Source: an uncultured Acidobacteriota bacterium (GTDB taxonomy: Bacteria > Acidobacteriota > Thermoanaerobaculia > Multivoradales > UBA5704). Taken from it: DNA of 64,000 bases. The notes beneath the pieces were generated by a model. The model saw nothing but the letters and a program-made list of their open reading frames with translations, searched no databases and was not told where the DNA came from. The position numbers were made by a program, and so were the translations under genes. Shown here one piece after another: positions 3,040 to 38,078 of the stretch. The stretch covers positions 136,359 to 200,358 of the forward strand of contig CAWBWZ010000010.1 of assembly GCA_963792575.1 (NCBI GenBank), given 5' to 3'. Within the stretch, counting starts at the first letter, position 1; each line of letters begins with the position of its first letter.

Positions 3040-3147
3040 AAAAAGGACATAAAGGACAGCAAGGACGTAAAGGACAAAAACACGGACGAGACCGCGGCTC
3101 TTTGTTTCTATGTCCTTGTCGTCCTTGCTGTCCTTTGCGTCCTTTCC
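3040..3147. repeat. AAGGAC-repeat long hairpin, copy 1, in the divergent tkt/peptidase promoter region
   Basis: Left arm AAGGACATAAAGGACAGCAAGGACGTAAAGGACAAAAACACGGACGAG, loop ACCGCGG, and a right arm that is its imperfect reverse complement. Confidence 0.6.
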
Positions 3148-3264
3148 TGGTTTCTCCCCGAGGCTCCCCAGATCTCCCGGCGCGCACCCTCTTGGATAAC
3201 ACCCGCGCAGCTCTGGCCCGCGGCAAGCAGCCGCGGGCCTCCGGGAAGATCGGAGGAAATGGGT

Positions 3265-5340
3265 ATGACACGCAAGCTCGTCTGGCTTCTGCTGTTCGCC
3301 TTCGGCAGTGCGGTACACGCCGCCCCGCAGGACGCCGTCCCCACCGCCGCCAAGCACGCCGTGCTCGACGTCAGCCGTCTGGACTCCGTTCTCCCCTCGA
3401 AACTGGACCTGGCGAAGCTCGGGGAAGAGGACGCTTTGAGCGACCGCAAGGGGACGCCGCCGCGGTTCGCGGTTCCGGAGCAGGTCTCCGTCACGCCGGA
3501 CCGTCAGGGTACCTGGGAGAACCTGGGCAACGGCCAGCTGCTCTGGCGCCTGCGCATCATCGGCCGCGAGGGTACGACGTCCCTGAACCTCGGCTTCACC
3601 CGCTTCAAGATGACGCCGAACGGACGCCTGATGGTCTACTCGGCGGACGGCCAGCAGGTGCTGAGGCCCTTCACGGCGGCGGACAACGCGGCGCACGGAG
3701 AGCTGTGGACGCCGGTCGTCACTACCAGCGATCTCGTCGTGGAGCTCACCGTGCCGCGGCGGGAGCGGAAGCAGGTGGAGCTCAAGCTCGGCTGGATCAA
3801 CCAGGGCTACCGCGGCTTCGGGACGCTGTCCGGCGTGGAGTATCAAAAATCCGGCAGCTGCAACCTGGACGTCGAGTGCCTGGCCGCCGGCGATACGTGG
3901 CGCGACACGATGCGGGCGGTGGGCGTGATCTCGACCGGCGGCTCCAGGTTCTGCACCGGGTCGCTGCTCAACGACACCGCCGGCGACCACAAGATGTACT
4001 TCATCACGGCCAACCACTGCAGCATCACCTCCGGGAACGCGGCCTCGCTGGTGGTCTACTGGAACTATCAGAACTCCTTCTGCCGGACGCCTGGCAGCGC
4101 GGCCAGCGGGCAGGCCGGCAACGGCCCTCTCACCCAGTTCCACACCGGCTCCTTCTTCCGCGCTGCCAGCGCCGCCTCGGACTTCACGCTGGTGGAGCTC
4201 GACGATCCGCCGGTCGCGGCCTACAACCATCGCTGGGCGGGCTGGGACCGTTCGACGGGCAACTTCGCGTGCAGCGCGGCGACCCCCTGCGCGTCGATCC
4301 ACCACCCGAACACCGACGAGAAGCGGATCACCTACGTCATCACCACCACGGCGACGACCAGCTACAACAACCCGGCCTCACCGGGAGATGGCTCCCACAT
4401 CTGGGCGCACTGGGCGACCGACCCTCCGGGAACCTTCACGGTGCCGGGCGTGACCGAGCCCGGCTCCTCCGGCTCGCCGCTCTACAGCCAGGCGGGGCGC
4501 TTCATCGGCCAGTTGCACGGCGGACCCTCCGCCTGCGGCGCCACGGGCGACAGCCTCTCGGACTACTACGGACGCTTCAGCGTCTCCTGGACCGGCGGCG
4601 GCACCAACAGCACCCGCCTCTCCAACTGGCTCGACGCGGGAGGCACCGGCGCGACCACCGTCGACGGCATCGACGGCTCCACCGGCCCCTGCACGCCGCC
4701 GGCGGCACCGACCGGCGTAACCGCCACGGCCACCTCGCAGACGCAGATCAACCTCACCTGGACCGCCGCCGCCGGGGCGTCCTCGTACACGATTTTCCGC
4801 GCGACGACCAGCGGCGGACCCTACACGTCGGTGGGAACCTCGGCCACCACCTCGTTCTCGAACACCGGCCTCGCCTGCAACACCACCTACTACTACGTGG
4901 TGACGGCGTCGAACGGCACCTGCGCCTCCGGCAACTCGACGCAGGCGTCGGCGACGACCCAGGCCTGCACGGCCTGCAACGCGGTCGCCGATACCGAGCC
5001 GAACAACAGCCGCACCGCGCCGCAGGCGATCTCAGGGGTCTGCAACCAGATCTCGGGGACCTTCCTCAACGACGCGGCGTCGCAGCAGAACGACTACTTC
5101 CGCCTGAGCCTGCCCGCGGGCAGCACGGTGACGGCGCTGCTCAACGGCCTGACGGTGGACTACGACGTCTACATCTACAACTCGACGACGGGCACCGAGG
5201 TGGCGAGCTCGCTGAACGGCGGCACCACCGCGGACCAGGCTTCCTGGACCAACACGGGCGCCTCGGCGATCAACGTCTATATTCGCGCGTATCGCTTCTC
5301 GTCGACCCGGACGACCTATCAGCTGAAGGTCAGCTACTGA
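3265..5340 (+). CDS. secreted S1-family (trypsin-like) serine peptidase with fibronectin type III and C-terminal pre-peptidase (PPC) domains
   Basis: Signal peptide MTRKLVWLLLFAFGSAVHAAPQ is followed by His-site motif YFITANHC and Ser-site motif EPGSSGSPL. An FN3-like segment (SYTIFRATTSGGPYTSVG...TYYYVVTASNG) and a PPC-like tail (NDYFRLSLPAGSTVTALLNG...YDVYIY) follow. GGAGG RBS lies 8 nt before ATG 3265; the upstream part of ORF 3022 is an artefact of a hairpin repeat. Confidence 0.75.
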   Translation: MTRKLVWLLLFAFGSAVHAAPQDAVPTAAKHAVLDVSRLDSVLPSKLDLAKLGEEDALSDRKGTPPRFAVPEQVSVTPDRQGTWENLGNGQLLWRLRIIGREGTTSLNLGFTRFKMTPNGRLMVYSADGQQVLRPFTAADNAAHGELWTPVVTTSDLVVELTVPRRERKQVELKLGWINQGYRGFGTLSGVEYQKSGSCNLDVECLAAGDTWRDTMRAVGVISTGGSRFCTGSLLNDTAGDHKMYFITANHCSITSGNAASLVVYWNYQNSFCRTPGSAASGQAGNGPLTQFHTGSFFRAASAASDFTLVELDDPPVAAYNHRWAGWDRSTGNFACSAATPCASIHHPNTDEKRITYVITTTATTSYNNPASPGDGSHIWAHWATDPPGTFTVPGVTEPGSSGSPLYSQAGRFIGQLHGGPSACGATGDSLSDYYGRFSVSWTGGGTNSTRLSNWLDAGGTGATTVDGIDGSTGPCTPPAAPTGVTATATSQTQINLTWTAAAGASSYTIFRATTSGGPYTSVGTSATTSFSNTGLACNTTYYYVVTASNGTCASGNSTQASATTQACTACNAVADTEPNNSRTAPQAISGVCNQISGTFLNDAASQQNDYFRLSLPAGSTVTALLNGLTVDYDVYIYNSTTGTEVASSLNGGTTADQASWTNTGASAINVYIRAYRFSSTRTTYQLKVSY

Positions 5341-5360
5341 TCTGAAGGATAGGAACCTGG

Positions 5361-5399
5361 AGGGGGGCGGAGCTCATTGGGGAGCTCCGCCCCCCTTGT
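5361..5399 (+). terminator. Rho-independent terminator after the peptidase gene
   Basis: GGGGGGCGGAGCTC-ATTGG-GGAGCTCCGCCCCCC is a perfect 14-bp stem followed by TTGTTTT. Confidence 0.7.
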
Positions 5400-5400
5400 T

Positions 5401-5429
5401 TTGACTCCAAACCCAGTTACCCCTACAAT
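5401..5429 (+). promoter_or_regulatory. sigma70-like promoter for tRNA-Ser (TTGACT-N17-TACAAT)
   Basis: TTGACT at 5401-5406, a 17-nt spacer and TACAAT at 5424-5429 sit about 24 nt upstream of the tRNA 5' end. Confidence 0.5.
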
Positions 5430-5452
5430 CTCACCTCCCTGTCGGGCCTTAC

Positions 5453-5546
<94 letters not shown>

Positions 5547-5652
5547 CATTTCCCTCTGCAAGCATCCCGGCCCGGAGGTTGCAGCACTCTGAGGCCGCTC
5601 GCGTTTCCTCGGAGCCCTCCAGGGTGCGCGTGGGCAGATGTGGAGGACGGAC

Positions 5653-7016
5653 ATGTTGAAGGCCATCAATCCCGCCACCGGCGAGACCCTCCGCGAAGTT
5701 CCCGAGCACGACGAGCAAGAGGTCAACGAGCGGCTGGAGGCTGCCGAGGTGGCCTTCAAGTCCTGGCGGCGCTTCGATTTCGAGGAGCGGGCCCGGCATC
5801 TGACCAGCGTCGCCGACCTGCTGCGCGAGAACATGGCGGACTTCGCCCGGCTGATGACGGAGGAGATGGGCAAGACCCTCGCCTCCGCCGAGTCCGAGGT
5901 CGACAAGTGCGCCTGGGTCTGCGATTTCTACGCCGAGAACGCCGAGCGCTTCCTCGCCAATGAGCCGGTGGCGACCGACGCCGCAAAGAGCTTCATCCGC
6001 TACGAGCCGCTCGGACCGGTGCTCGCCATCATGCCGTGGAACTTCCCGTTCTGGCAGTTCTTCCGCTTCGCGGCGCCGGCGCTGATGGCAGGCAACGTGG
6101 CGCTGCTGAAGCACGCGGCGAACGTCCCCGGCTCGGCTCTCGCCATCGAGGCGGTGTTCCGCGAGGCGGGCCTGCCGGACGGCGTGGTGACCACCCTCCT
6201 GGTCTCCTCGGCGCGGGTCAAGTACCTGATCAGCAACCCCGTGGTGCGGGCGGTGACTCTCACCGGCAGCGACCGCGCCGGCATGGAGGTGGCCGCGGAG
6301 GCGGGGCGGTGCCTGAAGAAGGCGGTCCTCGAGCTGGGCGGCTCCGACCCGTTCATCGTGCTCGTCCGACGTCGATCCCGCCGAGGCGGGCCGGCAGGCG
6401 GCGAAGGCGCGCACGATCAACAACGGTCAGAGCTGTATCGCCGCCAAGCGCTTCATCGTCATCGACGACATCGCCGACCGCTTCGAGGAGGAGTTCGTCC
6501 GCGCCGTGGAAGGGCTCAAGGTGGGCGATCCCATGGAGCGGAGCACGGACGTCGGCCCGATGGCGCGCGAGGATCTGCTCGACTCCCTCGACGATCAGGT
6601 GAAGCGCTCGGTCGCGGCCGGGGCCCAGCTGCGAACCGGCGGCAAGCGGCTGGAAGGGAACGGGCTGGTACTACGCGCCGACGGTGCTGACCGGCGTCCA
6701 GCCCGGCATGGCCGCCTTCGACGAGGAGACCTTCGGGCCGGTGGCGGCGGTGATCCGGGCGCGCGACGCCGCGGAGGCGATCGAGCTGGCGAACCGCTCG
6801 CGGTTCGGCCTCGGCGCCAGCATCTGGACCGCCGACGCCGCCCGCGGCGAGGATCTGGCGGCCGAGATCGAGGCCGGCTGCGTGTTCGTGAACGGCACCG
6901 TCAAGTCCGACCCCCGCCTCCCCTTCGGCGGCGTCAAGAGCTCCGGCTACGGCCGCGAGCTCTCCGAGGTGGGGATCCGCGAGTTCGTGAACATCAAGAC
7001 AGTCTGGATCAAATAA
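5653..7016 (+). CDS. NAD(P)-dependent aldehyde dehydrogenase (succinate-semialdehyde dehydrogenase-like); at least three 1-bp indel frameshifts near ~6365, ~6420 and ~6664
   Basis: ORFs 5638..6690, 6506..7030 and 6684..7016 together read as one ALDH: [11 protein letters not shown]...LELGGSDPF | ...[11 protein letters not shown]...GKRLEGNG | [15 protein letters not shown]...[22 protein letters not shown] precedes ATG 5653. Confidence 0.75.
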
Positions 7017-7036
7017 ACCGGATCAAGTAGGCCGGA

Positions 7037-7951
7037 TCAAGTAGGCAGCCGGATCGTCATCACCGGACAGGGGGCGTGCTCGACGGCCCGTTCGGCGGTG
7101 CTGCCCATCAGCAGATGGCGCAGGCCGGAGAGCCCGCGGGTGCCCATGGCGATCAGGTCGGCGCCGCGCTTCTCGGCCTCCTCGGCGATGACGTGCGCCG
7201 GGTCCCCCTCGCGGGCGACCGTCTCCACCGTCAGCCCTTCCCGCTGCAGCGCCTGCGCGGCCTCATAGAGCCGCCGCTCGGCCTCCAGGCCCGTGTCCTC
7301 GAGATAGCGGAGAGAGGTCGGGATCACCCCATAGGCGGTGTACTCGATCGGCAGGTTGAAGGCGTGCAGCAGGATGAGCCGGGCGTCCTGCTCCAGCGGC
7401 GCCAGCAGCCGGTGGGCGGTGGCGATGGCGAGCTCGGCGGCCGGCGAGAAATCGGTGGGCACCAGGATGGTGCGGATCACGCGGTGCTTGCCGAAGTCGC
7501 CCGGATGGACCGTCAGCACCGGACAGTGGGCGTCGTGGACCACCCGCTGAGCGGTGCTCCCCAGCAGCAGATGGCGCAGGCTGGTCAGCCCGCGCGTGCC
7601 GAGGACGATCGCCAGCGGCGAGATCGCATCGGCGCGGTCGAGGATCACCTGTGAAGGCGTGCCGGCCCGCAGGAAGGTCGTGACCTCGCCCCCCCTGCCG
7701 CCCAACGCCGCGGCGGCTTCCGCCAGCCGGGCCTCGGCCGCCTGGGTCACCTCTTCCTGGAAGTTCTCCGCGGAGGGAACGTAGCCCGGAATGGAAGGGG
7801 GTATGGTGACGGCGTGGACCAGCTCGACGCTCCCACCCTGCTGGCGCGCGAGCTCGACAGCCCAGTCGAGCGCGGCGGAGGCGGTGGCCGAGAAGTCGGT
7901 CGCCGCCAGGATCATGGGTTTGCTGCGGGTCACTGGTTCCATGGGTTCCAT
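7037..7951 (-). CDS. tandem universal stress protein (UspA) domain protein
   Basis: Two Usp domains: ILAATDFSATASAALDWAVELA...LGTRGLTSLRHLLLGSTAQRVVHDAHCPVLTV and ILVPTDFSPAAELA...MGTRGLSGLRHLLMGSTAERAVEHAPCPVMTI. GGGAGGGG RBS precedes ATG 7951. Confidence 0.8.
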   Translation of the reverse strand: MEPMEPVTRSKPMILAATDFSATASAALDWAVELARQQGGSVELVHAVTIPPSIPGYVPSAENFQEEVTQAAEARLAEAAAALGGRGGEVTTFLRAGTPSQVILDRADAISPLAIVLGTRGLTSLRHLLLGSTAQRVVHDAHCPVLTVHPGDFGKHRVIRTILVPTDFSPAAELAIATAHRLLAPLEQDARLILLHAFNLPIEYTAYGVIPTSLRYLEDTGLEAERRLYEAAQALQREGLTVETVAREGDPAHVIAEEAEKRGADLIAMGTRGLSGLRHLLMGSTAERAVEHAPCPVMTIRLPT

Positions 7952-7982
7952 GTCGTCCCCTCCCGCCTCCCATTCTAGACCG

Positions 7983-8744
7983 CTAGGCCGGTGCCCTGGC
8001 GCCGCGCCGGGCCGAGAAGATGAAGATGTGCTGGGCGGGGAGGGTCTCCAGCCGGTTCACCAGCTCGAAGCCCGCCGCGTTCCACTCGGAGAGCACCTGC
8101 TCGACCGACATCCGGTGCTTGATGTTGATGTGGGAGGCGGTGTTCCCCTCGAGGCGGTACTCGACCAGGGCGACGGTGCCGCCGGGCGCCAGGCTGTCGC
8201 GGATATGGGCGAGCATCGGCTCGGGCTTCTGGAACTCGTGGTAGACGTCGACCAGGAGGATGCGGTCGATGCCGCGCGCGGGGAGCTTGGGGTCGGTCTC
8301 GGTGCCGAGGACGGTGATGATGTTCTGCACCCCCTCCCTGGCGGTGTACTGCTTGAGCAGGTCGATCATCTGGGGCTGGATGTCCTCGGCGTAGACCTTG
8401 CCCGTGGGTCCCACCACCCTGCCGATCCGGCGGCTGAAAAAGCCGGTGCCGGCGCCGATCTCGGCGACGTTCATCCCTTCCCTGAGCTCCATCGCCTGGA
8501 TCACCAGCTCCGGCTTCTCCAGCTCGGCGCGCCCGTCGCGCTCCAGCCAGTCGGCGTGCTCGTAGCTCATCACGTTGGCCGGCTCGCGCTTTTCGACGGG
8601 CACGGCACTCAGGCGGGCGCCGCCCGGGCGGTGGCCAGCTCCCGGCTCGGCACAGGCGGCGAGCAGCAGGAGCAGGAAGCCGAGCCAGGCCCGCCAGGTC
8701 AGGCCGCGGACGGAAAGAGGCGAGGGGGTGCGGTGAAAGTTCAT
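7983..8744 (-). CDS. secreted class I SAM-dependent methyltransferase
   Basis: N-terminal signal/lipoprotein-like segment, then SAM motif VAEIGAGTGFFSRRI and a methyltransferase fold (ILLVDVYHEF...GGTVALVEYR). Confidence 0.7.
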   Translation of the reverse strand: MNFHRTPSPLSVRGLTWRAWLGFLLLLLAACAEPGAGHRPGGARLSAVPVEKREPANVMSYEHADWLERDGRAELEKPELVIQAMELREGMNVAEIGAGTGFFSRRIGRVVGPTGKVYAEDIQPQMIDLLKQYTAREGVQNIITVLGTETDPKLPARGIDRILLVDVYHEFQKPEPMLAHIRDSLAPGGTVALVEYRLEGNTASHINIKHRMSVEQVLSEWNAAGFELVNRLETLPAQHIFIFSARRGARAPA

Positions 8745-8857
8745 GGGCGGTCTCCCGACGAGCGGTCTTGGGAAGAGAACATAGTCTGTCAGGAGAACCA
8801 GAAGCCGGAGCGCCTCATTTCTCCTGAAGTGCGATACTGGTTCCGGTGATACTTCCG

Positions 8858-10495: not shown

Positions 10496-11948
10496 ACAGT
10501 CTGCGTCTGATCCTCCTCCTCGTCCTCGGGCTCCTGCCGCTGTCCTCGGGGCGGTCCGGCCAGCCCGGCGCGGCGCGGGCAGGGGCGGATACCCGCCCCG
10601 ATACTCGCCCCAACATCCTGGTGATCATGACGGACGACCAGACGGTCGAGCAGATGCGCGCCCTGCCGAAACCCGGGCGCTGCTGGCGGCGCGGGGCACC
10701 TCGTTCGCGAACAGCTTCGTCGACTTCTCGCTCTGCTGCCCCTCGCGCGCGACCTTCCTCACCGGCCAGTACGCCCACAACCACGGCGTGCTCGCCAACG
10801 GCGGACCGCATGGCGGCTACCCGCACCTCGACCACACGAACACGCTGCCGGTCTGGCTCCAGGAGGCCGGCTACTACACCGCCCACGTCGGCAAATACCT
10901 CAACAACTACGGGGTGAGCTCCCCCGAGCCCCCTCCGGGGTGGTCGCGCTGGTTCGGGCTGATCGATCCCACGACCTACCGGCTGTTCAACTACACGGTG
11001 AGCGACGACGGCACGCCGGTGAACTACAAGAGCGCCGCCAAGGATTATCAGACGGATGTGATCGCGGCCAAGGCCGACGAGGTCCTCCGCTCGCGGGCGA
11101 GCTCCGGCCAGCCGTTCTTCCTCACCGTGGCGCCAACCTCGCCGCACCTTGAAAGGCTCACCCGCAACGGCGACCAGATCCCGCCGCGGCCGGCTCCGCG
11201 CTTCGCGGGGAAGTTCGGCGCGGAGCCGCTGCCGGTGAAATCGTCGTTCGACGAGGCCGACATCGCGGACAAGCCGGCCCACATCAGCAACCGGCCGCGG
11301 CTCAGCCCGGCGAAGAAGGCCCACGTGGCGGAGACCTACCGCGCCTGCCTCGCCTCGCTTCTCGCCGTCGACGACCTCGTCGAAAAGCTGGTCAGAACCC
11401 TCGACGACACCGGCCAGCTCGGCCGCACAATCATCATCTTCACCTCGGACAACGGCTTCTTCTTCGGCGAGCACCGCGTCACCGAGGGCAAATACCTCCC
11501 CTACGAGGAGTCGATCCGGGTGCCGCTCATCGTCTTTGACGGACGAGGCGCCGCCGGCGGTTTCCCGGCCGGGGCCACGGTCACGCAGCCGGTCTCCAAC
11601 ATCGATCTCGCGCCGACCATCGTGGCCCTGACCGGCGCCCGCGCCCGCCGGGTGATGGACGGCCAGCCGCTGCTCCCCCTGGTCCTCAACCCCGGACAGG
11701 GGAAGAGCCGGACGCTGCTGATCGAGGGCTTCGGCGAGGGCGGCGGCAAGCCGCCGTTCACCGCGCTGCGCGATCCGCGCTGGTTCTACGCCGAGTACAA
11801 GAACGGCGACCGCGAGCTCTACGATCTTCAGACCGATCCGAACGAGCTGCGCAGCCTGCATGCCGACCCCGCGTTCGCGGCGGTCCGGAAGGACCTCGCC
11901 AGCCGTCTGGCGAAGCTGCGGGCCTGCTCGGGCGCGAGTTGCCGGTAG
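10492..11948 (+). CDS. sulfatase (arylsulfatase family, Cys-type CxPxR), one 1-bp deletion frameshift near ~10665
   Basis: Signal peptide MNSLRLILLLVLGLLPLSS, then NILVIMTDDQ, then (after the frameshift) SFVDFSLCCPSRATFLTGQY...IIFTSDNGFFFGEH...SIRVPLIVFDG. Its ATG overlaps the methyltransferase stop as ATGA. Confidence 0.75.
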
Positions 11949-11949
11949 A

Positions 11950-12042
11950 AAAAAGAAGAAAGGACGTAAAGGACGACAAGGACTGCAAGGACACCGGAAT
12001 TCGTCCTTTGCGTCCTTGCAGTCCTTTACGTCCTTTCTTCTA
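11950..12042. repeat. AAGGAC-repeat long hairpin, copy 2 (tandem 9-nt NNNAAGGAC units paired with their complement)
   Basis: Left arm GAAGAAAGGACGTAAAGGACGACAAGGACTGCAAGGACACCGG, loop AATT, and a right arm that is its near-perfect reverse complement. It lies between the sulfatase stop and the add start. Confidence 0.6.
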
Positions 12043-12214
12043 AATCGACCCCCACCATCGCCGGCTCTTCTGCACCAGCCGGTGCAGATGCCGCCAGAAG
12101 GCGTGGCGTCGGCGCCTCCGGCGCAGCAATCGTAAGACTCTCATGTCGGCGCTCTGGTAGACGGACGGACACGCGAATCTCTGATCCCGTAAGATTCCGC
12201 CGGGAGGAGAACGA

Positions 12215-13201: not shown

Positions 13202-13229
13202 TATGGTTTGAGCAAGGAGGGAGATGAGA

Positions 13230-16040: not shown

Positions 16041-16288
16041 GAGCGTTCCGGTCGTGGAGGGAGTTTATCCCAGGCCTGAGGGTGGAGGACGGCAAAGCCG
16101 CGACATGTCAGGACATGCCCTTTGTTGCGCCTCTTGACAACACGGCCGGAATTTGGCTATCTTGGGTCTCGGCAGGCATGCGCGGGGGAAACTTCTGGTC
16201 GCTCTGGTAGCGGCAGCCCCTTTGGGGGTGGGATCCTGAAGCCCGGGGCCTGCTTATTCTTCTCCCTCTAGAATTTCGCGTACCCAGC

Positions 16289-25177: not shown

Positions 25178-25362
25178 GTGGCGATTCCGTTTGGCACCCT
25201 CACTGTAGAGACGCCCCGTGGGGCGTCTCCGAGGCGGAGAGGAAGATCCTCATTGCCACAGAGCACCCGCGGGGGCGTCCAAGGGAGCATGGCCGACGTT
25301 CGCTGCCCTGGAGACGCCCCACGGGGCGTCTCTACAGTGGAGGGGCACCCCTTTCCAAACAC
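25178..25362. repeat. MITE-like element: ~50-bp imperfect terminal inverted repeats, including a perfect 27-bp inverted pair, around an ~80-bp core
   Basis: CTGTAGAGACGCCCCGTGGGGCGTCTC (25203-25229) is exactly reverse-complemented at 25311-25337. Flanking TTTGGAAAG...GGCACCC extends the inverted repeat, and each 27-mer is itself palindromic. Confidence 0.45.
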
Positions 25363-25378
25363 CCTCTTAGACGTGCTT

Positions 25379-25447
25379 CTGTAGGGGCGGCCCTATGTGG
25401 CCGCCCTGGGTGCCGGAGCAGGGCGGCCACATAGGGCCGCCCCTACA
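25379..25447. repeat. perfect 29-bp inverted repeat hairpin (11-nt loop) at the convergent selD/yceH junction
   Basis: TGTAGGGGCGGCCCTATGTGGCCGCCCTG ... CAGGGCGGCCACATAGGGCCGCCCCTACA. No U-tract follows. Confidence 0.5.
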
Positions 25448-25455
25448 AGCGCTGC

Positions 25456-28745: not shown

Positions 28746-29100
28746 GGGGGTGTACCGGTTTCGACGGGGAACAAAGCGGAGCAGTGGGCGGCGTGTCGAG
28801 CTTCCGCTCGTAACACTGGAAAAATAACTGCGAACGATAACTTCGCCCTCGCGGCCTAAAAAGGGCTCGTGACGTTCCGATGGTGGGCCTTGATTCGCGG
28901 CGCCCACCGGAACGACGCTAAAGCGGATCAATGGGTGCGGCGGCCTTGTGACGCATCCTGATATAAAGCAAGGCTGGCTACCGTGCCAGGTTGGCCTTCT
29001 TCCAGAGCACGGTGGCGAGACTTAGAATAGAGGGATACACACGTAGATGCTCCTGATACGCGTTTCTCGGACGTGGGTTCGACTCCCACCACCTCCACCA
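28746..29100 (+). ncRNA. ssrA: tmRNA (SsrA), tag peptide (A)ANDNFALAA
   Basis: 5' GGGGGTGTACCGGTTTCGACGGGG pairs with 3' ...GGACGTGGGTTCGACTCCCACCACCTCCACCA. The internal tag reading frame GCG AAC GAT AAC TTC GCC CTC GCG GCC TAA is present. Confidence 0.85.
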
Positions 29101-29305
29101 AAGCCAGCTTTCCTTCCAGACAGTTCCATTCTCGGGGATCTACGACTCAGAGTCCGTCTCATCCTGCTCCTCGGGGTGCGCTTCCCTTGACGCAGCGCCG
29201 ACAACGCTGCATACTAACCATCGGCTGTGTACAGAGTGGCCAATTTGGCCCCGATCCACTGGACCGCCCGCGAGTCAACGCAGGGTCTTACCGGCGCAGC
29301 CAGTT

Positions 29306-30175: not shown

Positions 30176-30300
30176 TAGCAAATTCGGGTCTCGGCCCGCG
30201 GCATATCTCCGGCGGACCAGACAGAGTCTCCTCAATATAAATGTTAAGGTAAATTAACCTCGGAGGCGTGGTGCGTCGACCTTCCTCCGGCGGAGTCCGC

Positions 30301-31374
<1,074 letters not shown>

Positions 31375-31481
31375 CTTATCTCTCCTTTCGCCCCTCTGGC
31401 TCCGATGGGCTCCTGATAGAATGTTCCAAGTCACGAGCGCCGTTTTATTCTTCCCCAGCAATCTTTCGCGAATCGAGGATT

Positions 31482-32649
31482 TTGACTTTGAAAGCCGATC
31501 CGAGGAACTTTGGCTTCTCTACCCGCGCCGTCCACGCCGGCCAGAAACCCGACCCCCGCACGGGCTCGGTGGCGGTGCCGATCTATCAGACGTCCACCTA
31601 CGTGCAGGAGCACCTGGGCGAAGCGGTCGAGTATCGAATACGCCCGGGTGCAGAACCCCACCCGCGAGGCGCTCGAGGAGCAGATCATGATCCTCGAGGG
31701 CGGGGTCTCCGGCCACGCCTTCGCCTCCGGCATGGCGGCCATCGCCTGCCTGATGACCGTGCTCCAGGCGGGCGATCACGTGGTGGTCTCGCGCAACGTC
31801 TACGGCGGCACCTTCCGCTACTTCACCCGCATCCTGGAGCGCTCCGGCCTCACCTTCTCGTGGGTCGACACCACGGACCTCGCGGCGGTCGAGGCGGCGA
31901 TCCGGCCGGAGACGAAGATGGTCTACATCGAGACGCCGACGAACCCGGTGATGGACATCACCGACATCGCCGCCGTCGCCGGGATCGCCCACGCCCACGG
32001 CGCGCGCGTGGCGGTGGACAACACCTTCCTGACCCCATATCTCCAGCGGCCGCTGGCCCTCGGGGCGGACTTCGTCGTGCACTCGGCGACCAAGTTCCTG
32101 AACGGCCACAGCGATTCGATCTGCGGCGTGCTGATCGCGTCGACGCAGGAGGACGCCGACTGGTTCGCGCTGGTCCAGAAGTCGTCAGGCGCGATCCTGT
32201 CGCCGTTCGACTGCTTCCTGGTGATGCGCGGCATCAAGACGCTCGTCGTCCGCATGGACCGGCACGAGCGGAACGCGCGGCGGATCGTCGAGTACCTCGT
32301 CGAGCACCCGAAGGTGGAGCGGGTGCTCTATCCCGGGCTGCCGGACCACCCCGGCCACGAGATCCAGAAGCGCCAGGCTTCCGGGTTCGGCTCGATGATC
32401 ACCATCGAGATGGGGAGCTTCGAGGCGGCCAAGAAGATGCTCGAGGCCATGGTGGTGATGAGCTTCGCGGAGAGCCTGGGAGGCGTCGAGAGCCTGATCT
32501 CCCACCCCGCCTCGATGACCCACGCCTCGATTCCCGCCGAGCGGCGGGCCGAGCTGGGCCTGACCGACGGCATGGTGCGGATCTCGGTGGGGATCGAGAA
32601 CGTCGAGGACCTGCTGGCCGACCTGGATCAGGCGCTGGCGAAGGTGTAG
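31482..32649 (+). CDS. PLP-dependent trans-sulfuration enzyme (cystathionine gamma-synthase/beta-lyase, O-acetylhomoserine sulfhydrylase family); 1-bp insertion frameshift near ~31635
   Basis: [29 protein letters not shown] | (shift) | ...NVYGGTF...[17 protein letters not shown] start with a GAGGA RBS. Removing one C in GAGTATCGAATAC restores [14 protein letters not shown]. Confidence 0.75.
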
Positions 32650-32668
32650 GGCAGGGAGAGAGGAGGGG

Positions 32669-33064
32669 CTAGTCGTCGTCGGAATCGACGCCCGCGTAGG
32701 CCAGCCCCTCTTCCTCCTCGTCGTCATCGTCGTCCCCGAAGTCGGCGTCCTTGTCGACGCTCCCCGCGATCCAGTCGAGGAAGCCGCGCTCGCCCTCCGC
32801 GACGTTGAAGGAGAGGATCTCGGGCAGCTCATAGCTATGGAGCTCGCGGATGGTGGCCGCGACCCCCTCGAACTCCCCTTCGAGGGTCTTGACGAGGAGC
32901 ATCAGCTCCCCGTCCTTGCAGATCTTCCCCTTCCAGCGATAGATCGAGCGGACGCCGGGGAGGATGTTGACGCACGCGGCCTGACGCCGCGCGACGATCT
33001 CGCGCGCGATAAGGTACGCCTGCTCTTCGGTTCCAACGGTGGTGACAACGACAATCGCGCGCAT
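32669..33064 (-). CDS. cutA: divalent-cation tolerance protein CutA
   Basis: [46 protein letters not shown] is followed by an acidic tail. Confidence 0.75.
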
Positions 33065-33096
33065 GAAACCAAGGTACTGCACTCGTTCCGAGCGAG

Positions 33097-33693
33097 TCAA
33101 TCACGCCAGACCCGCCGCTCGGGATCCCAGGTGAAGACCCGCATCCTGCCGGCGTTGTTGGCGACGCGCACGACGGCGAGCCGGCGCAGGCCGTCGCTCA
33201 GGTAGAGCGAGCCGGGCGTCGAGGTGCCCAGCGGGCTGAACGAGGCGAGGTCGGACTGGTTGAAGCGGATCGGATCGCTGGTCGGCACCCGGTGCCCGGG
33301 CGAGCCAGGATCGGGCACCGGCGGCCCGGGCGGAAAACCGAAGCCAAAGCCGCGCCCGAGGTTGGAGAGCCGCCGCGGCGGCTCGACCTGCGGGTCCACG
33401 CCGGCGTCGATGTCGCGGTTGAGCACGCCGTCGCCATCGCCGTCGCGATAGAGCGTGTAGGTGACCGCGCCGTCACGGGCGGTGCGGAACTTCACCGCCA
33501 CGTTGGCGTTGTGCCGCACGGCCCAGGAGCGTGCCAGTCGAAGGACGCCCACCAGCTCGGCCGTGCCCAGCCGCAGCCGCAAGTCGCCGGAGGACCGCAG
33601 CAGCGGCGGTAACCCGAGGGTCACGAGGAAGGCGAGCACCGCCAGGGCGACGGTGAGCTCGGCCAGTTGAAAGCCTTTCGGATGGGAGGTCAT
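33097..33693 (-). CDS. type II secretion/type IV pilus pseudopilin (GspH/FimT family, prepilin N-terminal methylation motif)
   Basis: KGFQLAELTVALAVLAFLV is a prepilin-type leader plus hydrophobic helix, followed by a GspH-like body. Confidence 0.55.
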   Translation of the reverse strand: MTSHPKGFQLAELTVALAVLAFLVTLGLPPLLRSSGDLRLRLGTAELVGVLRLARSWAVRHNANVAVKFRTARDGAVTYTLYRDGDGDGVLNRDIDAGVDPQVEPPRRLSNLGRGFGFGFPPGPPVPDPGSPGHRVPTSDPIRFNQSDLASFSPLGTSTPGSLYLSDGLRRLAVVRVANNAGRMRVFTWDPERRVWRD

Positions 33694-33757
33694 CGCACGG
33701 CCCCGGAAAGAAGCCCGGGCGGGGCGGAGCTCCAGGCCCCACCCCGCCCGGCGCTCT

Positions 33758-34180
33758 TCAGCGGGACGACTCCGGCTTGTCCGGCTTGGCCGCGGATTTG
33801 GAATCGGGCTTGCCGTCGGACTTACCGCCGGACTTGGACGAGGGGGACGAGCCGGAGCGGCTGCCCTTCACCTTCTCCCGCAGCGTCGTCTCGCCGGCGG
33901 TCGCGACGTAGGGCTTGATGAGCTCGAAGGTCTTTTCGCCGATCCCCTGTACCAGCATCAGGTCTTCGGCCTTCTTGAACGCGCCGTTCTGCTTGCGGTA
34001 ATCGACGATGCGGCCGGCGACGCTCGGGCCGACCCGCGGCAGCATGGCGAGCTGCGAGGCGTCGGCGTTGTTGATGTTGACCTTCTTGGCGTCCGCGCTC
34101 CAGACGGGCAGGGTGTTGGCGAGGAACGCGAGGGCCAGCAGACCGGCGATGGCGCGATGGGCGCGATGGGCATGCTTCAT
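33758..34180 (-). CDS. comEA: competence protein ComEA (helix-hairpin-helix DNA-binding)
   Basis: Signal peptide MKHAHRAHRAIAGLLALAFLA, then VNINNADASQLAMLPRVGPSVAGRIVDYRKQNGAFKKAEDLMLVQGIGEKTFE, a tandem HhH. Confidence 0.7.
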   Translation of the reverse strand: MKHAHRAHRAIAGLLALAFLANTLPVWSADAKKVNINNADASQLAMLPRVGPSVAGRIVDYRKQNGAFKKAEDLMLVQGIGEKTFELIKPYVATAGETTLREKVKGSRSGSSPSSKSGGKSDGKPDSKSAAKPDKPESSR

Positions 34181-34401
34181 GGGGGTGCTCCTTTGGGTTG
34201 CGTGATGCGTTGGTTTTGCGACGGTTCGTCGAGGTCCCTTTCCGTTTGCTTTTTCAGCTCCGTGTCTCTCTGGGCGCCACCTCCTCTCGGGTTGACGCCG
34301 GCCCTGGAGATCAAGTCCCCTGCCAGATCGGCGACAGCGGCCTAAGTACCTGGATTTAAAAGGGTTGCTGGAAAAGGCGGAGCTCCGGCCCAGGGGGCCG
34401 G

Positions 34402-34488
34402 TGTCAAAGGATCTGGCGGGGAATCGGGGCTGGGGGAGCGAGAATCGAGGCGGGCCGGGCGTTTGCCGGCATGTCAAAGGATCTGGCG
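34402..34488. promoter_or_regulatory. 17-bp direct repeat TGTCAAAGGATCTGGCG x2 (70 bp apart) in the comEA/lepB divergent promoter region
   Basis: Exact copies occur at 34402-34418 and 34472-34488, each preceded by CCGG. Confidence 0.3.
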
Positions 34489-34540
34489 CCGCGCGTGATC
34501 TTTTGCGGCGCGCTGGCCTTTCGAGTACAGTAGCCGCGCC

Positions 34541-35260
34541 ATGGCGGAAGAACGGGTGGAAAAACGCGCGGACGAACGGTCAGTCTGGCGGGAATACATC
34601 GAGGCGTTGATCATCGCCGCGGTGTTCCTGCTGTTCACGAACACCTTCGTCGTGCAGACCTTCTACATTCCGAGCGGCTCGATGGAGGACACCCTCCTCA
34701 TCGGCGACCATCTGTTCGTCAACCGGTTCATCTACGGCCCGACGCCGACTGGGGTGGAGAAGGGGGTGCTGCCGTTCCGCCCGGTGCACCGCGGCGACAT
34801 CGTGGTCTTCCGCTCGCCCGAGAACCCGGCCCTCGACCTCGTCAAGCGCTGCGTGGCGGTGGGCGGCGACACGGTCCAGGTGATCGATCAGCAGCTCTAC
34901 ATCAACGGCAAGGCGGTCAAGGACGCGAGCTACGCCTTGCACAAGAACCCCGAGCCGGTGGGCTTCTTCGTCGATCCGCGCATGCAGCTGCGGGACAACT
35001 ACGGCCCTTACCAGGTGCCCGCCGGCCACTACTTCTGCATGGGCGACAACCGCGACAACTCCTATGACTCGCGGTTCTGGGGGCCGCTGCCCGCCCATCT
35101 CGTCAAGGGGCGGGCGCTCTTCATCTACTGGTCCTATGGCGGGAAGACCTCGACGGGCCAGTGGGAAGGGGTGGGATCGAAGGTCAAGGACCTGGCGGAG
35201 ACCGCGCTCGGATTCTTCTCAAAGACCCGTTGGGAGAGGTCGTTCCGCCTGATCCGCTAG
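34541..35260 (+). CDS. lepB: signal peptidase I
   Basis: Catalytic IPSGSMEDTL and GDNRDNSYDSRFWG boxes. Confidence 0.85.
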   Translation: MAEERVEKRADERSVWREYIEALIIAAVFLLFTNTFVVQTFYIPSGSMEDTLLIGDHLFVNRFIYGPTPTGVEKGVLPFRPVHRGDIVVFRSPENPALDLVKRCVAVGGDTVQVIDQQLYINGKAVKDASYALHKNPEPVGFFVDPRMQLRDNYGPYQVPAGHYFCMGDNRDNSYDSRFWGPLPAHLVKGRALFIYWSYGGKTSTGQWEGVGSKVKDLAETALGFFSKTRWERSFRLIR

Positions 35261-35270
35261 CCGTCGCAGT

Positions 35271-36005
35271 ATGGACGACGCAGGTACTCACGCAGGTATG
35301 CACGCCGAGAAATCCCTGCTCCGGGAGTACCTGGAGGCCCTGCTCATCGCGGTGATCTTCGCGACCTTCGCCCGCACCTGGGTGCTGCAGGCGTTCAAGA
35401 TCCCGTCCGGGTCGATGGAGAAGAACCTGCTGATCGGCGATCACATCCTGGTCAACAAGTTCGTCTACGGGCCGACGATCTCCCCGCTGGAGGAGAAGCT
35501 GCTGCCGATCCGCAAGGTGCGGCGGGGGGACATCGTGGTCTTCAAGTACCCCGAGGACCCCAACCGCGACTTCATCAAGCGGTGCATGGGCCTGCCCGGG
35601 GACACGATGAAGATGATCGACAAGGACCTCTACATCAACGGCAGGCACATCGACGACTCCTCGTTCACCTACTACGCCGACTCCGAGAGCTACCCGCGCG
35701 ACCTCTTCTTCCACGCCAAGCGGGTGCGCGACAACTTCGGCCCCAAGAGCGTCGCGCCCGGCACCTACTTCTGCATGGGCGACAACCGCGACAACTCCAA
35801 CGACTCCCGCTACTGGGGGACGGTGCCCGAGCGCTACGTCAAGGGGCGGGCGTTCATGGTCTACTGGTCCTTCGCCAGCGACGACGAAACGAGTGAGGGT
35901 GGGGAGTGGCCGGGCTATGGCGGCAAGCTGCGGCAGATCGGCGGCGTGGCCCTGAATTTCTTCTCGCTGACCCGGTGGGATAGAACCTTTCGCATCGTGC
36001 GATAA
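35271..36005 (+). CDS. lepB: signal peptidase I, second tandem paralogue
   Basis: IPSGSMEKNL and GDNRDNSNDSRYWG boxes. Confidence 0.85.
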   Translation: MDDAGTHAGMHAEKSLLREYLEALLIAVIFATFARTWVLQAFKIPSGSMEKNLLIGDHILVNKFVYGPTISPLEEKLLPIRKVRRGDIVVFKYPEDPNRDFIKRCMGLPGDTMKMIDKDLYINGRHIDDSSFTYYADSESYPRDLFFHAKRVRDNFGPKSVAPGTYFCMGDNRDNSNDSRYWGTVPERYVKGRAFMVYWSFASDDETSEGGEWPGYGGKLRQIGGVALNFFSLTRWDRTFRIVR

Positions 36006-36040
36006 ACTACCCTCCAACGAATCCTTAACGGAGGGAGCCA

Positions 36041-36412
36041 ATGCCACGACGGAGTTCCGAACGGGGCGAGGGGAATCTCGGGTGTATCCTCTGGTTGCTC
36101 GCGCTGGGCCTCGCGGCCCTGATCGCCTGGAAAGCGGTGCCGGTCAAGATCCAGAGCACCCAGCTCTACGACTACATGGACGAGCTGGCCAAGTTCTCGG
36201 CTGCCCGTACGCCGCCTGACGAGCTCGCGAAACAGATCGTCAGCCGCGCCCGGCAACTCGACATTCCGCTCGAGAAGAAGGACGTCAAAATCGTGCGGGA
36301 CGGGGATCGCATCTTCATGGAGCTCGACTACACCGTTCCGGTGCAGTTCCCCGGCTATACGTACCAGTGGCACTTCCACCAGAAGCTCGACCGGCCGATC
36401 TTCATCGTCTGA
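36041..36412 (+). CDS. DUF4845-like small membrane-anchored protein, conserved downstream of lepB
   Basis: N-terminal TM anchor LGCILWLLALGLAALIAWKA and a ~120-aa size. Its position after lepB matches the lepB-DUF4845 synteny seen in proteobacteria. Confidence 0.5.
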   Translation: MPRRSSERGEGNLGCILWLLALGLAALIAWKAVPVKIQSTQLYDYMDELAKFSAARTPPDELAKQIVSRARQLDIPLEKKDVKIVRDGDRIFMELDYTVPVQFPGYTYQWHFHQKLDRPIFIV

Positions 36413-37995
36413 TGCGCGGCTGGCTGGCGATCCTCGGGGGTGGCTTCGCCCCCGGGGCGCTCGCCGGGGTCCAGCTCGCCGGGCTGATCTTCTACCTCAA
36501 TCCGCACCTGCCGTTCGCCTTCGGCCCGGTGCTGCGCGGGAGCCTGATCTACGGCACCCTGATCGGCACGATCAGCCTGGCGCTGCACCTGCCGTTCACC
36601 TGGAGGCGGCCGCGGCGAGCCCGGCGCGCGCTCGCCTGGACCTTCACGGCCGCGCTCGCGGTCTCCGCCCTGCTCGACTGGGCCCACGCCTCCTACTTCG
36701 CCTATTTCCTCCCCCCCGGCATCAACGACCGCCTGATCAAGACCGCCCTCTGGCTCACCCTCGGCACGCTGATCGCCTTCTACACTGCGCTGCTGCACTC
36801 GCTCAGCCGCCGCCGCTACGGCCGGCGCAGCCGCTGGGGGCTGACACTGATCGCGGCGCTCTCGATCTACGCCATGGTCGAGCGCCGGGAGGCGTTTCAC
36901 CCGCGACCCGCGACCACCCCCCGCCCCGCGGCGGTGGAGGCCGGCCAGCGGCCGAAGCTGTGGGTGATCGGCATCGACTCGGCGACGCTCGACGCCATCC
37001 TCCCCCTGGCCGGCCAGGGGCGCCTGCCGTTCCTCGCCACGGTGCTCCAGAACGGCGCCTACGGCCGGCTGAGCTCGATCGTGCCGACGCGGCGCGACGC
37101 GCTGTGGACCACGCTCGCCACCGGCAAATACCCGTTCAAGCACGGCATCACCGGCCGGCGCTCCTACCCCGCCCCCTTCCTCGCTCCCGGCGCCGAGCTG
37201 CGCCTCCTCCCCACCGGGATCTCCTTTCAGCGCTGGGGCGTGCTGGGCGCCAGGCCCATGCCGGCAGGCACGCCGCGGCGCGAAGCGCTGGCGCTCTGGG
37301 AGATCCTGCCGCGACTCGGCGTTCCAGCCGGCGTCGTCGGCTGGCCGGCGGCCAACCCGGAGGCCGGCGAAGCCACCTTCGCGCTCGGGGAAGACCTCTT
37401 CACCGGCGCTCCCGACCCGGACCTCAGGCGGCAAACGATGGCCCTGAAGCTCGCCGGCGAAAACCCGCGCGTAGAGGCGGTCTTCCTGCTGCTGCCGGGG
37501 TTGCGGGGGGTGTCGCGGCGCTGGTTCGGCGGCTTCAACGCCGTGCAGTTCGAGGGCCGCCAGGAAGGGGAGGCGGCCCGCGCCGCGGCCGATCGGGTGG
37601 CCGATGCCTACACGCAGCTCGACGGCCTGCTGGCGGAGGCCTGGGCGCAAGGCCAGGGCCCGAGGCTGCTCGCGGTCATCTCCCCCTACGGGGTGAACCC
37701 TCCGGGGTGGCTGAGGCGGCAGATGGCGCCGGGAGCGGCGCTCGGCGGTGAGTTCCAGGGTGGACCGGACGGCGTTCTGCTCCTCTACGGCGAGGGGATC
37801 CGCCCCGGGGCCCTGCTCACCGGCGCCCGGCTGGTCGACGTGGCGCCCACGCTGCTCTACGGCCTGGGATTTCCCGTCTCACGCGAGCTCGACGGCCAGG
37901 TGCTCACGTCGGCGTTCGAGAAGAGCTTCCTGGCGCGGAATCCGGTGGCGGTTTTTCCCTCGTACGAGGGGCTGGCGCGGGCCGCAAGAAACTAA
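36412..37995 (+). CDS. membrane-anchored alkaline phosphatase/nucleotide pyrophosphatase-phosphodiesterase family protein
   Basis: Four N-terminal TM helices, then KLWVIGIDSATLDAI (a type I phosphodiesterase-like metal site) and LLYGEGIRPG. The ATG overlaps the upstream stop as TGATG. Confidence 0.5.
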   Translation: MRGWLAILGGGFAPGALAGVQLAGLIFYLNPHLPFAFGPVLRGSLIYGTLIGTISLALHLPFTWRRPRRARRALAWTFTAALAVSALLDWAHASYFAYFLPPGINDRLIKTALWLTLGTLIAFYTALLHSLSRRRYGRRSRWGLTLIAALSIYAMVERREAFHPRPATTPRPAAVEAGQRPKLWVIGIDSATLDAILPLAGQGRLPFLATVLQNGAYGRLSSIVPTRRDALWTTLATGKYPFKHGITGRRSYPAPFLAPGAELRLLPTGISFQRWGVLGARPMPAGTPRREALALWEILPRLGVPAGVVGWPAANPEAGEATFALGEDLFTGAPDPDLRRQTMALKLAGENPRVEAVFLLLPGLRGVSRRWFGGFNAVQFEGRQEGEAARAAADRVADAYTQLDGLLAEAWAQGQGPRLLAVISPYGVNPPGWLRRQMAPGAALGGEFQGGPDGVLLLYGEGIRPGALLTGARLVDVAPTLLYGLGFPVSRELDGQVLTSAFEKSFLARNPVAVFPSYEGLARAARN

Positions 37996-38078
37996 GAACA
38001 CGGACAGACACGGACGTAGAGGACGAACACGAGGCCCAGGCGTGTTCGTCCTTTACGTCCGTGTCTGTCCGTGTTCTT
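37994..38078. repeat. AAGGAC/CACGGAC-repeat long hairpin, copy 3, wedged exactly between convergent stop codons
   Basis: AAGAACACGGACAGACACGGACGTAGAGGACGAACACG, loop AGGCCCAGGC, then CGTGTTCGTCCTTTACGTCCGTGTCTGTCCGTGTTCTT. The stem is a near-perfect 37 bp. Confidence 0.6.

Follow-up and report, generated by a model that had tools for sequence, protein, structure and literature searches.

We describe a family of small, non-coding hairpins built from tandem nine-nucleotide units in the DNA of an uncultured acidobacterium (Thermoanaerobaculia; Multivoradales; UBA5704). Three copies lie in the stretch analysed here, hereafter the window, which comprises 64,000 nucleotides of contig CAWBWZ010000010.1 (assembly GCA_963792575.1, positions 136,359 to 200,358 of the forward strand). 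The hairpins are real, extremely stable as single strands and present in multiple copies in related genomes, where they are nearly always extragenic and in most cases follow a stop codon at a distance of 5-30 nt. Comparison with orthologous sites in close relatives shows recent gain at all three positions in the window. The reading that we favour, to which we give about an even chance, is that they form a lineage-restricted family of small non-coding palindromic insertions that spread in the manner of REPINs (doublets of repetitive extragenic palindromic, or REP, sequences) or miniature inverted-repeat transposable elements (MITEs) and serve as hairpins at transcript ends in both directions. 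The safest statement concerns their nature: a family of small, non-coding, extragenic palindromes, newly gained at gene ends in a single Thermoanaerobaculia lineage, with relatives across Acidobacteriota and look-alikes in other phyla.

Architecture and stability of the hairpins

An inverted-repeat search of the window recovered the three elements where a sequence-only reading of this DNA had placed them, and they are its longest short-range inverted repeats apart from a cluster at 25.2-25.45 kb. No further copy was found within the 64 kb, relaxed searches included. The window has a G+C content of 61-73%, and its proteins are nearest to those of metagenome-assembled genomes of Thermoanaerobaculia (Acidobacteriota), with ParB at 89-90% identity over its N-terminal half and adenosine deaminase at up to 97%. 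The hairpins are composed as follows.

Copy 1, arms 3042-3083 and 3104-3145: 42 nt each, complementarity 83%, 20 nt between the arms
3038-3044: A7 run abutting the 5' arm of copy 1; on the minus strand, U7 right after the stem
3042-3083: copy 1, 5' (purine) arm, units AAAAAGGAC ATAAAGGAC AGCAAGGAC GTAAAGGAC; GGAC at 3045, 3054, 3063 and 3072
3081-3087: copy 1, extra degenerate CACGGAC unit spanning the boundary of arm and spacer
3084-3103: copy 1, spacer with a small inner stem, unlike the loops of other copies
3104-3145: copy 1, 3' (pyrimidine) arm, GTCCTTGTC GTCCTTGCT GTCCTTTGC GTCCTTT; GTCC at 3112, 3121, 3130 and 3139
Copy 2, arms 11954-11992 and 12003-12041: 39 nt each, complementarity 87%, 10-nt loop
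11949-11954: A6 run directly 3' of the sulfatase TAG; on the minus strand, U6 after the stem of copy 2
11954-11992: copy 2, 5' arm, AGAAGAAAGGAC GTAAAGGAC GACAAGGAC TGCAAGGAC; GGAC at 11962, 11971, 11980 and 11989
11993-12002: copy 2, loop, ACCGGAATTC
12003-12041: copy 2, 3' arm, GTCCTTTGC GTCCTTGCA GTCCTTTAC GTCCTTTCTTCT
Copy 3, arms 37994-38031 and 38041-38078: 38 nt each, complementarity 97%, 9-nt loop
37994-38031: copy 3, 5' arm, AAGAACACGGAC AGACACGGAC GTAGAGGAC GAACACG; begins within the TAA stop (37993-37995) of a phosphodiesterase-family gene
38032-38040: copy 3, loop, AGGCCCAGG
38041-38078: copy 3, 3' arm, CGTGTTC GTCCTTTAC GTCCGTGTCT GTCCGTGTTCTT; ends in the stop (38078-38080, minus strand) of a parB-bactofilin open reading frame (ORF)

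The sequence-only reading had described near-perfect arms around loops of 4-10 nt. The first description fits copy 3 (97%) and is too strong for copies 1 (83%) and 2 (87%), the arms of the latter also having an alternative pairing register; the second holds for copies 2 (10 nt) and 3 (9 nt) and not for copy 1, where the gap between the arms is 20-36 nt. The proposed pattern of AAGGAC nonamers does not extend to copy 3, which is made of CACGGAC and AGAGGAC units at 10- and 9-nt spacing and gives no pattern match, and the core GTCCTTTACGTCC, thought to be common to all, is shared by copies 2 and 3, copy 1 carrying GTCCTTTGCGTCC instead. The periodicity itself is well above background: in copies 1 and 2, GGAC motifs spaced by exactly 9 nt were counted 8 times, against 1.0 +/- 1.1 in shuffled sequences, and the total of 9 matches observed was equalled in 0 of 100 shuffles.

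Across the acidobacterial copies the unit consensus is NN(C/A)AAGGAC, arrayed as 3-6 nonamers per arm. Among 83 units of 5' arms, position 3 is C or A in 79 and position 4 is A in 81, while position 5 holds A in 71 units and G in the other 12; conservation at these three positions, which outside the seed were not used for detection, is at least 85%, and the core as a whole is 85-100% conserved per position. The purine arm stands 5' in all 16 strict acidobacterial cases, so that transcription in either direction gives 5'-(AAGGAC)n-loop-(GUCCUU)n-3'. A loose order of units is common across genomes, namely an outer xGAAA-GGAC, then GTA-, CCA- or CTA-AAGGAC, then TGC-AAGGAC, and adjacent units are identical about twice as often as expected by chance. 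The 16 nt beyond the outermost unit, compared at 48 termini, hold no conserved tag or terminal motif and are merely rich in purines. Solo arms without a partner occur at loci L012, L023 (two) and L090 (L handles denote loci outside the window), and at L037 (6821-6856) four GTCCTT units are read in frame (PSLQSLPSFMSLP) in the adenylation domain of a non-ribosomal peptide synthetase (NRPS), before its A3 motif LAYVMYTSGSTGRPKG. In this NRPS solo arm the 9-nt unit preserves the reading frame.

When arms are paired in the best gapless register, which is picked to maximise pairing, core positions pair in 86-97% of cases and the two free positions in 66-71%. Variable triplets controlled for register match at 56% within a hairpin and at 49% between unrelated hairpins (p about 0.04). 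When 18 hairpins were aligned on an anchor, pairing was seen in 83.1% of cells versus 79.4% after shuffling, with a covariation score of 0.153 versus 0.101; neither value was reached in any of 500 shuffles. The sequence-only reading had named compensatory change as the sign of a function at the RNA level, an expectation that these figures bear out only weakly. Selection on one RNA strand was considered and rejected, as G:U and A:C mismatches number 58 and 62 in the sense orientation of the upstream gene, which amounts to no G:U bias. The hairpin exists mainly since both arms are arrays of one conserved core. Its typical structure is a series of 7-bp helices parted by small internal loops, and near-perfect stems are few (copy 3 pairs at 37 of 38 positions, L043 at 68 of 69 and L001 at 43 of 46).

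The RNA minimum free energies of the three window hairpins range from -59.5 to -77.6 kcal/mol, with z scores of -7.9 to -13.9 over both strands. The statement that none has a U-tract proved mistaken. On the minus strand, U7 (copy 1) and U6 (copy 2) directly follow the stem, the copy 1 fold ending in ...GUCCUUUUUUUCAGC, and the case against a terminator role that had been built on the missing U-tract is accordingly wrong for this strand of both copies. The plus-strand tails are U-rich as well (UUUCUUCU in copy 2, UUCUUU in copy 3), and on the minus strand copy 3 ends in UUCUUAGUUUCUU. Only in some orientations is the stem followed by a U-tract in canonical fashion. A terminator consensus scanner calls none of the three, because it admits stems of at most 20 pairs and loops of at most 8 nt and these hairpins have stems above 20 bp or loops above 8 nt.

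Gene context and recent gain

The contexts noted earlier, a divergent intergenic region, a co-directional gap and an exact fit between convergent stops, were all found as described, and the window copies lie outside ORFs with Pfam support. Copy 1 stands between the divergent starts of a transketolase gene (minus strand, 1069-2961) and a trypsin-like/fn3 peptidase gene (plus strand, from 3262). Copy 2 starts one base past the sulfatase TAG (11946-11948), 174 nt before an adenosine deaminase gene on the same strand. Copy 3 occupies the entire gap between the convergent phosphodiesterase-family gene and the parB-bactofilin ORF, with both stops at the base of the stem.

We classified 39 hairpins from other genomes for gene context by a codon-usage score, and most of them lie 5-30 nt after a stop codon. 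About 16 are in co-directional gaps, close to the upstream stop (median distance about 17 nt), and about 7 are between convergent genes, several reaching within 9-16 nt of both stops. Four or five hairpins lie between divergent genes: window copy 1, L101 (whose sequence was read directly), L079, L106 and possibly L116. A transcription-unit end is the position of copies 2 and 3 and of about 23 of the 28 classifiable hairpins elsewhere, and not that of copy 1, L101, L079 or L106. REPs are mostly found downstream of genes and sometimes within them (PMC3733652), and the distribution seen here is the one reported for REPs, close to, if not exactly, what pure terminators would be expected to give. 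At L101, which is syntenic with the site of a DUF3800-VII RNA in the window (16171-16259; RF02967, 78 bits), the nonamer hairpin is present instead, in a divergent intergenic region; the window RNA lies directly behind a promoter-like TTGACA-18-TATCTT (16134-16163).

Orthologous sites were compared for all three copies. Synteny in L120-L125 extends over rnpA-yidC-jag-gidB-parA-parB-bactofilin and the phosphodiesterase gene that converges on it. Copy 3 is missing in L121-L125, whose convergent genes either overlap or leave a gap of 13 nt. L120 retains an ortholog in the same place, with a near-unchanged 3' arm and a 5' arm that differs at about 10 of 31 positions, so its stem is poor in comparison with that of the window copy (37 of 38 paired). 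This difference suggests that one arm may occasionally be re-copied from the other. L126-L130, with adenosine deaminases 95-97% identical to that of the window, have the same gene order from transketolase to deaminase and lack both copies 1 and 2, their flanks aligning base for base (about 90%). Screening of metagenomes for a conserved 30-mer from just downstream brought in another three relatives, none of which has copy 2; copies 1 and 2 are missing in L126-L133. About 150 kb of relatives that had not been selected by the pattern contain no GGAC array except the L120 ortholog of copy 3, against three in the 64-kb window. The missing copies in close relatives, and the diverged copy 3 kept in L120, mark these as recent, lineage-specific gains. 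The hairpins thus behave like inserted elements, all three being missing from orthologous sites in close relatives.

The exact site of copy 1, in the gap between transketolase and peptidase, is occupied in L129 (3400-3717) by another kind of palindromic element, some 150 nt long (GCCCGGGATTGAAATCCCGGGC ... GCCCGGGATTTCAATCCCGGGC), and is therefore a hotspot for palindromic insertions. Next to copy 2, about 170 nt upstream of the adenosine deaminase gene (window 12042-12214), including CTGGTAGACGGACGGA...TAAGAT, are conserved at the nucleotide level in L126-L133, which suggests a conserved leader or promoter element.

Two further observations concern the surroundings of copy 3. Its inner GAACACG/CGTGTTC was considered as a parS site and set aside, having no match to the TGTTTCACGTGAAACA sites upstream of gidB in the relatives; these paired, parS-like sites are origin-proximal (L121 3532-3577, L122 3402-3448, L125 3514-3569). 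The 428-aa 'ParB-bactofilin fusion' (window 38078-39364, minus strand) is a parB that shifts frame after about residue 240 and continues into the frame of the downstream bactofilin. In relatives, parB (294 aa) and bactofilin (127 aa) are distinct genes with a 4-nt overlap, and the wrong-frame ParB stretch, rich in Arg, Pro and Gly, also occurs in L120, where parA is fused too. Either the frameshift is genuine and common to both, or it stems from an indel error of long reads.

Relatives in other genomes and known repeat families

A scan of one genome per species with the pattern AAGGACNNNAAGGACNNNAAGGAC returned at least 119 loci; its copy numbers and taxonomic proportions are lower bounds. Since the pattern did not demand an inverted partner, the hairpin status of the matches is an independent test. 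At least 31 loci are acidobacterial, mostly from Thermoanaerobaculia and also from Holophagales and Vicinamibacterales, and in 22 of the 31 listed an inverted GTCCTT array lies within 70 nt, the purine arm being 5' in all of these hairpins. The idea of an interspersed, extragenic, multi-copy family, for which a genome-wide copy search had been proposed, is thereby upheld, with many more copies in related genomes and many of them hairpins. Hairpins of like build were found in Parachlamydiaceae and other Chlamydiota (L027, L043, L105, L117), Pirellulaceae (L050), Verrucomicrobiaceae (L116), Chlorobiaceae (L064), Sumerlaeota (L078), Hydrogenedentota (L085) and Rhodanobacteraceae (L040, L119), and hairpins of opposite polarity in Lentisphaeraceae (L070, with three near-identical copies within a larger repeat), Phycisphaerae (L008) and Bacteroidales (L094, L113). 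As AAGGAC was fixed by the scan pattern, sharing of this hexamer across phyla is partly ascertainment. The full unit (G/A)TAAAGGAC, which the pattern did not demand, occurs in Acidobacteriota, Planctomycetota, Chlamydiota, Hydrogenedentota and Sumerlaeota.

Many non-acidobacterial matches (Streptomyces, Micromonospora) turned out to be one-sided coding repeats of Lys-Asp-X (KDx) and are unrelated to the hairpins. A genome-wide motif of the Chi or uptake-sequence kind was also rejected, with AAGGAC/GTCCTT showing no enrichment outside hairpins. Rfam 15 gave no family at the gathering threshold, the sub-threshold matches being to generic long-hairpin microRNA precursor models only. Viral contigs gave zero matches in both polarities and hence no sign of phage carriage. 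We found no description of nonamer hairpins in the literature searched, the coverage of which is incomplete and so no proof of novelty.

Hairpins made from other tandem units were seen at L106 (2881-2981 and 7460-7568), L116 (5901-5997), L031 (1483-1568), L044 (4199-4264) and L027 (4945-5037). Their arms consist of the heptamers AGCGTTC, CACCGTT, GAATGAC, GACGAGT and GAGTTAT and of an 8-mer; they come from several phyla and often share an 8-kb locus with a GGAC hairpin. Tandem-repeat palindromes seem to be a general, little-noticed class. At other loci, a unique stretch of 80-190 nt is enclosed by inverted GGAC arrays, which run to as many as 10 units (including GTAAAGGAC) and recall terminal repeat arrays on either side of a cargo. 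The enclosed segments are non-coding, and the loci are the following.

L050 (Pirellulaceae), 1129-1347 and 1920-2118: inverted arrays around a unique segment
L085 (Hydrogenedentota), 1148-1374: inverted arrays around a unique segment
L105 (Parachlamydiaceae), 3829-4017: inverted arrays around a unique segment

Membership in the REP/BIME (bacterial interspersed mosaic element) group, as suggested before, is not supported. A REP is a self-complementary stem-loop of 20-40 nt, one end of which bears the tetranucleotide GTAG or CGTC in unpaired form (PMC3733652). The nonamer hairpins have no such unpaired tag, their tandem arrays are not self-complementary, and genuine GTAG-tagged REP doublets occur elsewhere in the window. 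The latter lie at 25194-25452 between convergent ORFs and comprise two canonical, REPIN-like kinds; GTAG REPs of the window type also occur in other Thermoanaerobaculia loci (L082 7682-7783, L123 2752-2848).

First REP doublet kind: CTGTAGAGACGCCCCGTGGGGCGTCTC, inverted partner at 25300-25346
Second REP doublet kind: CTGTAGGGGCGGCCCTATGTGGCCGCCCTG, partner at 25419-25447

REPINs are REP doublets that form hairpins and are mobilised by RAYT (HUH tyrosine) transposases. Like REPs and REPINs, the nonamer hairpins are small non-coding elements that occur in multiple copies outside genes, for the most part downstream of them, with an occasional intragenic unit (the in-frame solo arm in the L037 NRPS gene is the parallel); their two inverted halves give a hairpin of about 100 nt in single-stranded DNA or RNA, they leave no target duplication, and their presence varies between related genomes. 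Unlike these repeats, they have no GTAG/CGTC tag, their halves are tandem nonamer arrays with unconserved loops, and no RAYT association was seen among the neighbours within 3.5 kb of the 39 hairpins. Roles in termination and mRNA stabilisation have been proposed for REPs and REPINs (PMC3116915, PMC3733652).

With regard to MITEs, apparent target-site matches noticed by eye (TA...TA, CTG...CTG, and a loop resembling the flank junction) were discarded, since flank/loop similarity equalled the control. MITEs such as Correia/NEMIS, ERIC and RUP are small and have terminal inverted repeats, insertion polymorphism, a gene-end location and hairpins in transcripts. The nonamer hairpins share the small size, the inverted ends (arms 83-97% complementary), the insertion polymorphism between related genomes (copies 1, 2 and 3), the frequent location at gene ends and the capacity to fold into hairpins when transcribed. 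They differ in having neither target duplication nor conserved internal sequence, in that copies are not near-identical and in that their ends are periodic arrays, and we know of no related full-length insertion sequence.

Other short repeats match in single respects. In Neisseria, inverted pairs of DNA uptake sequences form terminators, with one motif per arm and strong over-representation of the motif genome-wide. The nonamer hairpins resemble these pairs as a short conserved motif on both strands, inverted, downstream of genes and forming a terminator-like hairpin, but have 3-6 phased motifs per arm and no enrichment outside hairpins. For an RNA that titrates CsrA in the manner of CsrB/Rsm, A(N)GGA motifs would have to be exposed; here CAAGGA lies entirely inside the predicted stem, and Rfam gave no match. 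The TAACTGA repeats known from Beggiatoaceae, Cyanobacteria and Bacteroidetes are direct, 7 nt long and intergenic, mostly just upstream of start codons (PMC4679880). With these and with the heptamers of cyanobacterial short tandemly repeated repetitive (STRR) sequences, the nonamer hairpins share a specific short tandem unit, an intergenic position, a patchy occurrence across phyla, the lack of a known mobilising mechanism and a suspected role as binding sites; they differ in their period of 9 with two free positions, their inverted pairs and their location mostly downstream of stops. We therefore file the hairpins as a variant of the extragenic-palindrome kind that belongs to no named family, failing as they do the defining REP and MITE tests.

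Proposed mode of action and competing explanations

According to the favoured reading, the copies would derive from one another and would have spread as non-autonomous elements in REPIN or MITE fashion; the shared core, polarity and unit order argue for such descent. The arrays would then change through duplication or loss of units and through copying of one arm from the other. Once transcribed, an element would fold into its short helices and internal loops and, with A-rich 5' and U-rich 3' flanks, could act as a transcript-end element both ways, either by terminating transcription intrinsically or by blocking 3'-5' exonucleases. Alternatively, it may be a protective stem-loop without U-tract that defines Rho-dependent 3' ends, as in E. 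coli, where stable stem-loops of this kind shield Rho-terminated 3' ends (PMC6061677). A hairpin of -60 to -78 kcal/mol that begins only a few bases from a stop codon, between A-rich and U-rich flanks, would be expected to stop or delimit transcripts in both directions. Since the core would pair in any register, the hairpin would survive gain and loss of units, with the core kept fixed while the 2-3 variable bases drift.

Several results weigh against this reading. All-against-all BLAST of the ORFs within 3.5 kb of the 39 hairpins revealed no recurrent neighbour gene or transposase. Filled and empty sites, when aligned, show no target-site duplication, with flank-flank and flank-loop similarity at control level for whole elements and for single arms. 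There is no loop similarity between copies, and the two youngest copies in the window are short of the near-identity that copying and pasting from one master element would lead one to expect. The four or five copies between divergent genes, including copy 1, have nothing obvious for a terminator to terminate, and in copies 1 and 2 it is the strand without an upstream gene that the strongest U-tracts face. With weak covariation of the variable bases and no G:U bias, selection on RNA pairing is undemonstrated.

A bolder proposal, which we entertain as a tentative possibility, is that the hairpins represent a new class of bacterial mobile or self-propagating palindrome, in which phased (C/A)AAGGAC arrays are read by a putative protein and which has spread horizontally across phyla. 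The reader could be the recombinase or nuclease that spreads the element or an oligomeric protein binding RNA or single-stranded DNA. The occurrence of the full unit in several phyla would then be due to horizontal spread of such a system and not to coincidence.

Growth in situ by slippage and template switching is a serious rival, if on balance an unlikely one. Here the hairpins would be self-expanding palindromic microsatellites, born beside a stop codon from an A-rich/GGAC seed and enlarged as 9-nt units slip during replication and the template is switched within a strand; neither movement between loci nor a dedicated enzyme nor a selected function would be involved. The excess of identical adjacent units, the alternative pairing registers, the arm apparently rewritten between the window and L120, and the unique loops without target duplication or transposase are all in keeping with it, as are the hairpins of other tandem 7-8-mers in the same and other genomes. 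Unit-like residues at empty sites (TAAAGGACTCC in L129, GGTAGGATCTTTCT in L126, TAAGGACC in L122) would fit growth from seeds, AAGGAC being present in L129 and L122. This seed hypothesis is weakened, as a local deletion from sequence of the L126 type accounts for the AAAGGAC of L129, and nothing resembling a unit is seen where copy 1 is missing. Moreover, the same core and polarity and a similar order of units (GTA before TGC) are found again in many genomes and several orders, which independent births would not reproduce, and the variable bases differ between units, unlike the exact repeats of recent slippage.

We consider it rather improbable that the arrays are in essence periodic binding sites, with (C/A)AAGGAC presented every 9 nt, for example as (CAAGGACNN)4, in RNA, single-stranded DNA or duplex, and the hairpin secondary. 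The candidate reader would be an oligomeric protein, such as one of CsrA/Rsm type (CANGGA), a DNA binder of the ribbon-helix-helix type or the element's own recombinase. The CsrA/RsmE motif is CANGGA, which CAAGGA fits. Strong conservation of the core at fixed spacing beside almost free variable bases (0.56 within versus 0.49 between hairpins), the fixed polarity, the solo arms, and the arrays that flank unique segments at L050, L085 and L105 like terminal repeats are what such a function would lead one to expect. However, the motifs are buried in a stem of -60 to -78 kcal/mol, AAGGAC is not enriched outside hairpins, and 9-bp phasing would set successive duplex sites on different faces of the helix; in addition, strain-variable insertions beside unrelated genes are not conserved regulatory sites, and the neighbours of the 39 hairpins offered no linked candidate protein.

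Ordinary intrinsic terminators, vertically inherited, non-mobile and selected at the 3' end of each gene, with long periodic stems, are in our view quite improbable. Like bidirectional terminators or 3'-protective stem-loops, the hairpins mostly follow a stop codon closely or fit exactly between convergent stops, have A-rich leaders and U-rich tails, and through their polarity place U-rich sequence 3' in both directions. Their stems of 38-42 nt, in contrast to the usual 5-15 bp or so, are 3-4 times the common length and periodic, with regularly spaced mismatches, and the consensus scanner makes no call; canonical GC-rich terminator-like hairpins do occur elsewhere in the window, for example at 5360-5397. 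Furthermore, four or five copies lie in divergent intergenic regions, some of them promoter regions, and one solo arm within a coding region, and the recently inserted window copies, missing at orthologous sites of close relatives, are not conserved gene features. An assembly or sequencing artefact (fold-back chimeras or low-complexity misassembly) is barely conceivable: frameshift-like errors in parB of the window and L120 do suggest long-read assemblies, but hairpins of like kind lie within contigs of many independent assemblies (megahit k141, SPAdes NODE, long-read), copy 3 is present in two independent assemblies and the flanks of the hairpins are collinear with relatives.

Rfam also identified the following RNA genes in the window.

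28746-29100: tmRNA (163 bits)
46515-46613: small signal recognition particle (SRP) RNA
5453-5542 and 44657-44857: three tRNAs with long variable arms

If confirmed, the family would be a structurally distinct addition to the short list of small non-autonomous bacterial repeats, such as REPINs and MITEs, and its source is the Acidobacteriota, an abundant yet poorly studied soil phylum. The frozen 7-nt core, the 9-nt phasing and the pairing in any register bear on how such repeats originate, persist and are converted into transcript-end signals. The hairpins create or shift the 3' ends of genes, as with copy 3, which provides both stops of two convergent genes that in relatives lie end to end or overlap. 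The intergenic sites that they mark are hypervariable, and strains could be told apart by them; a specific binding protein, if one exists, would be a new nucleic-acid recognition system.

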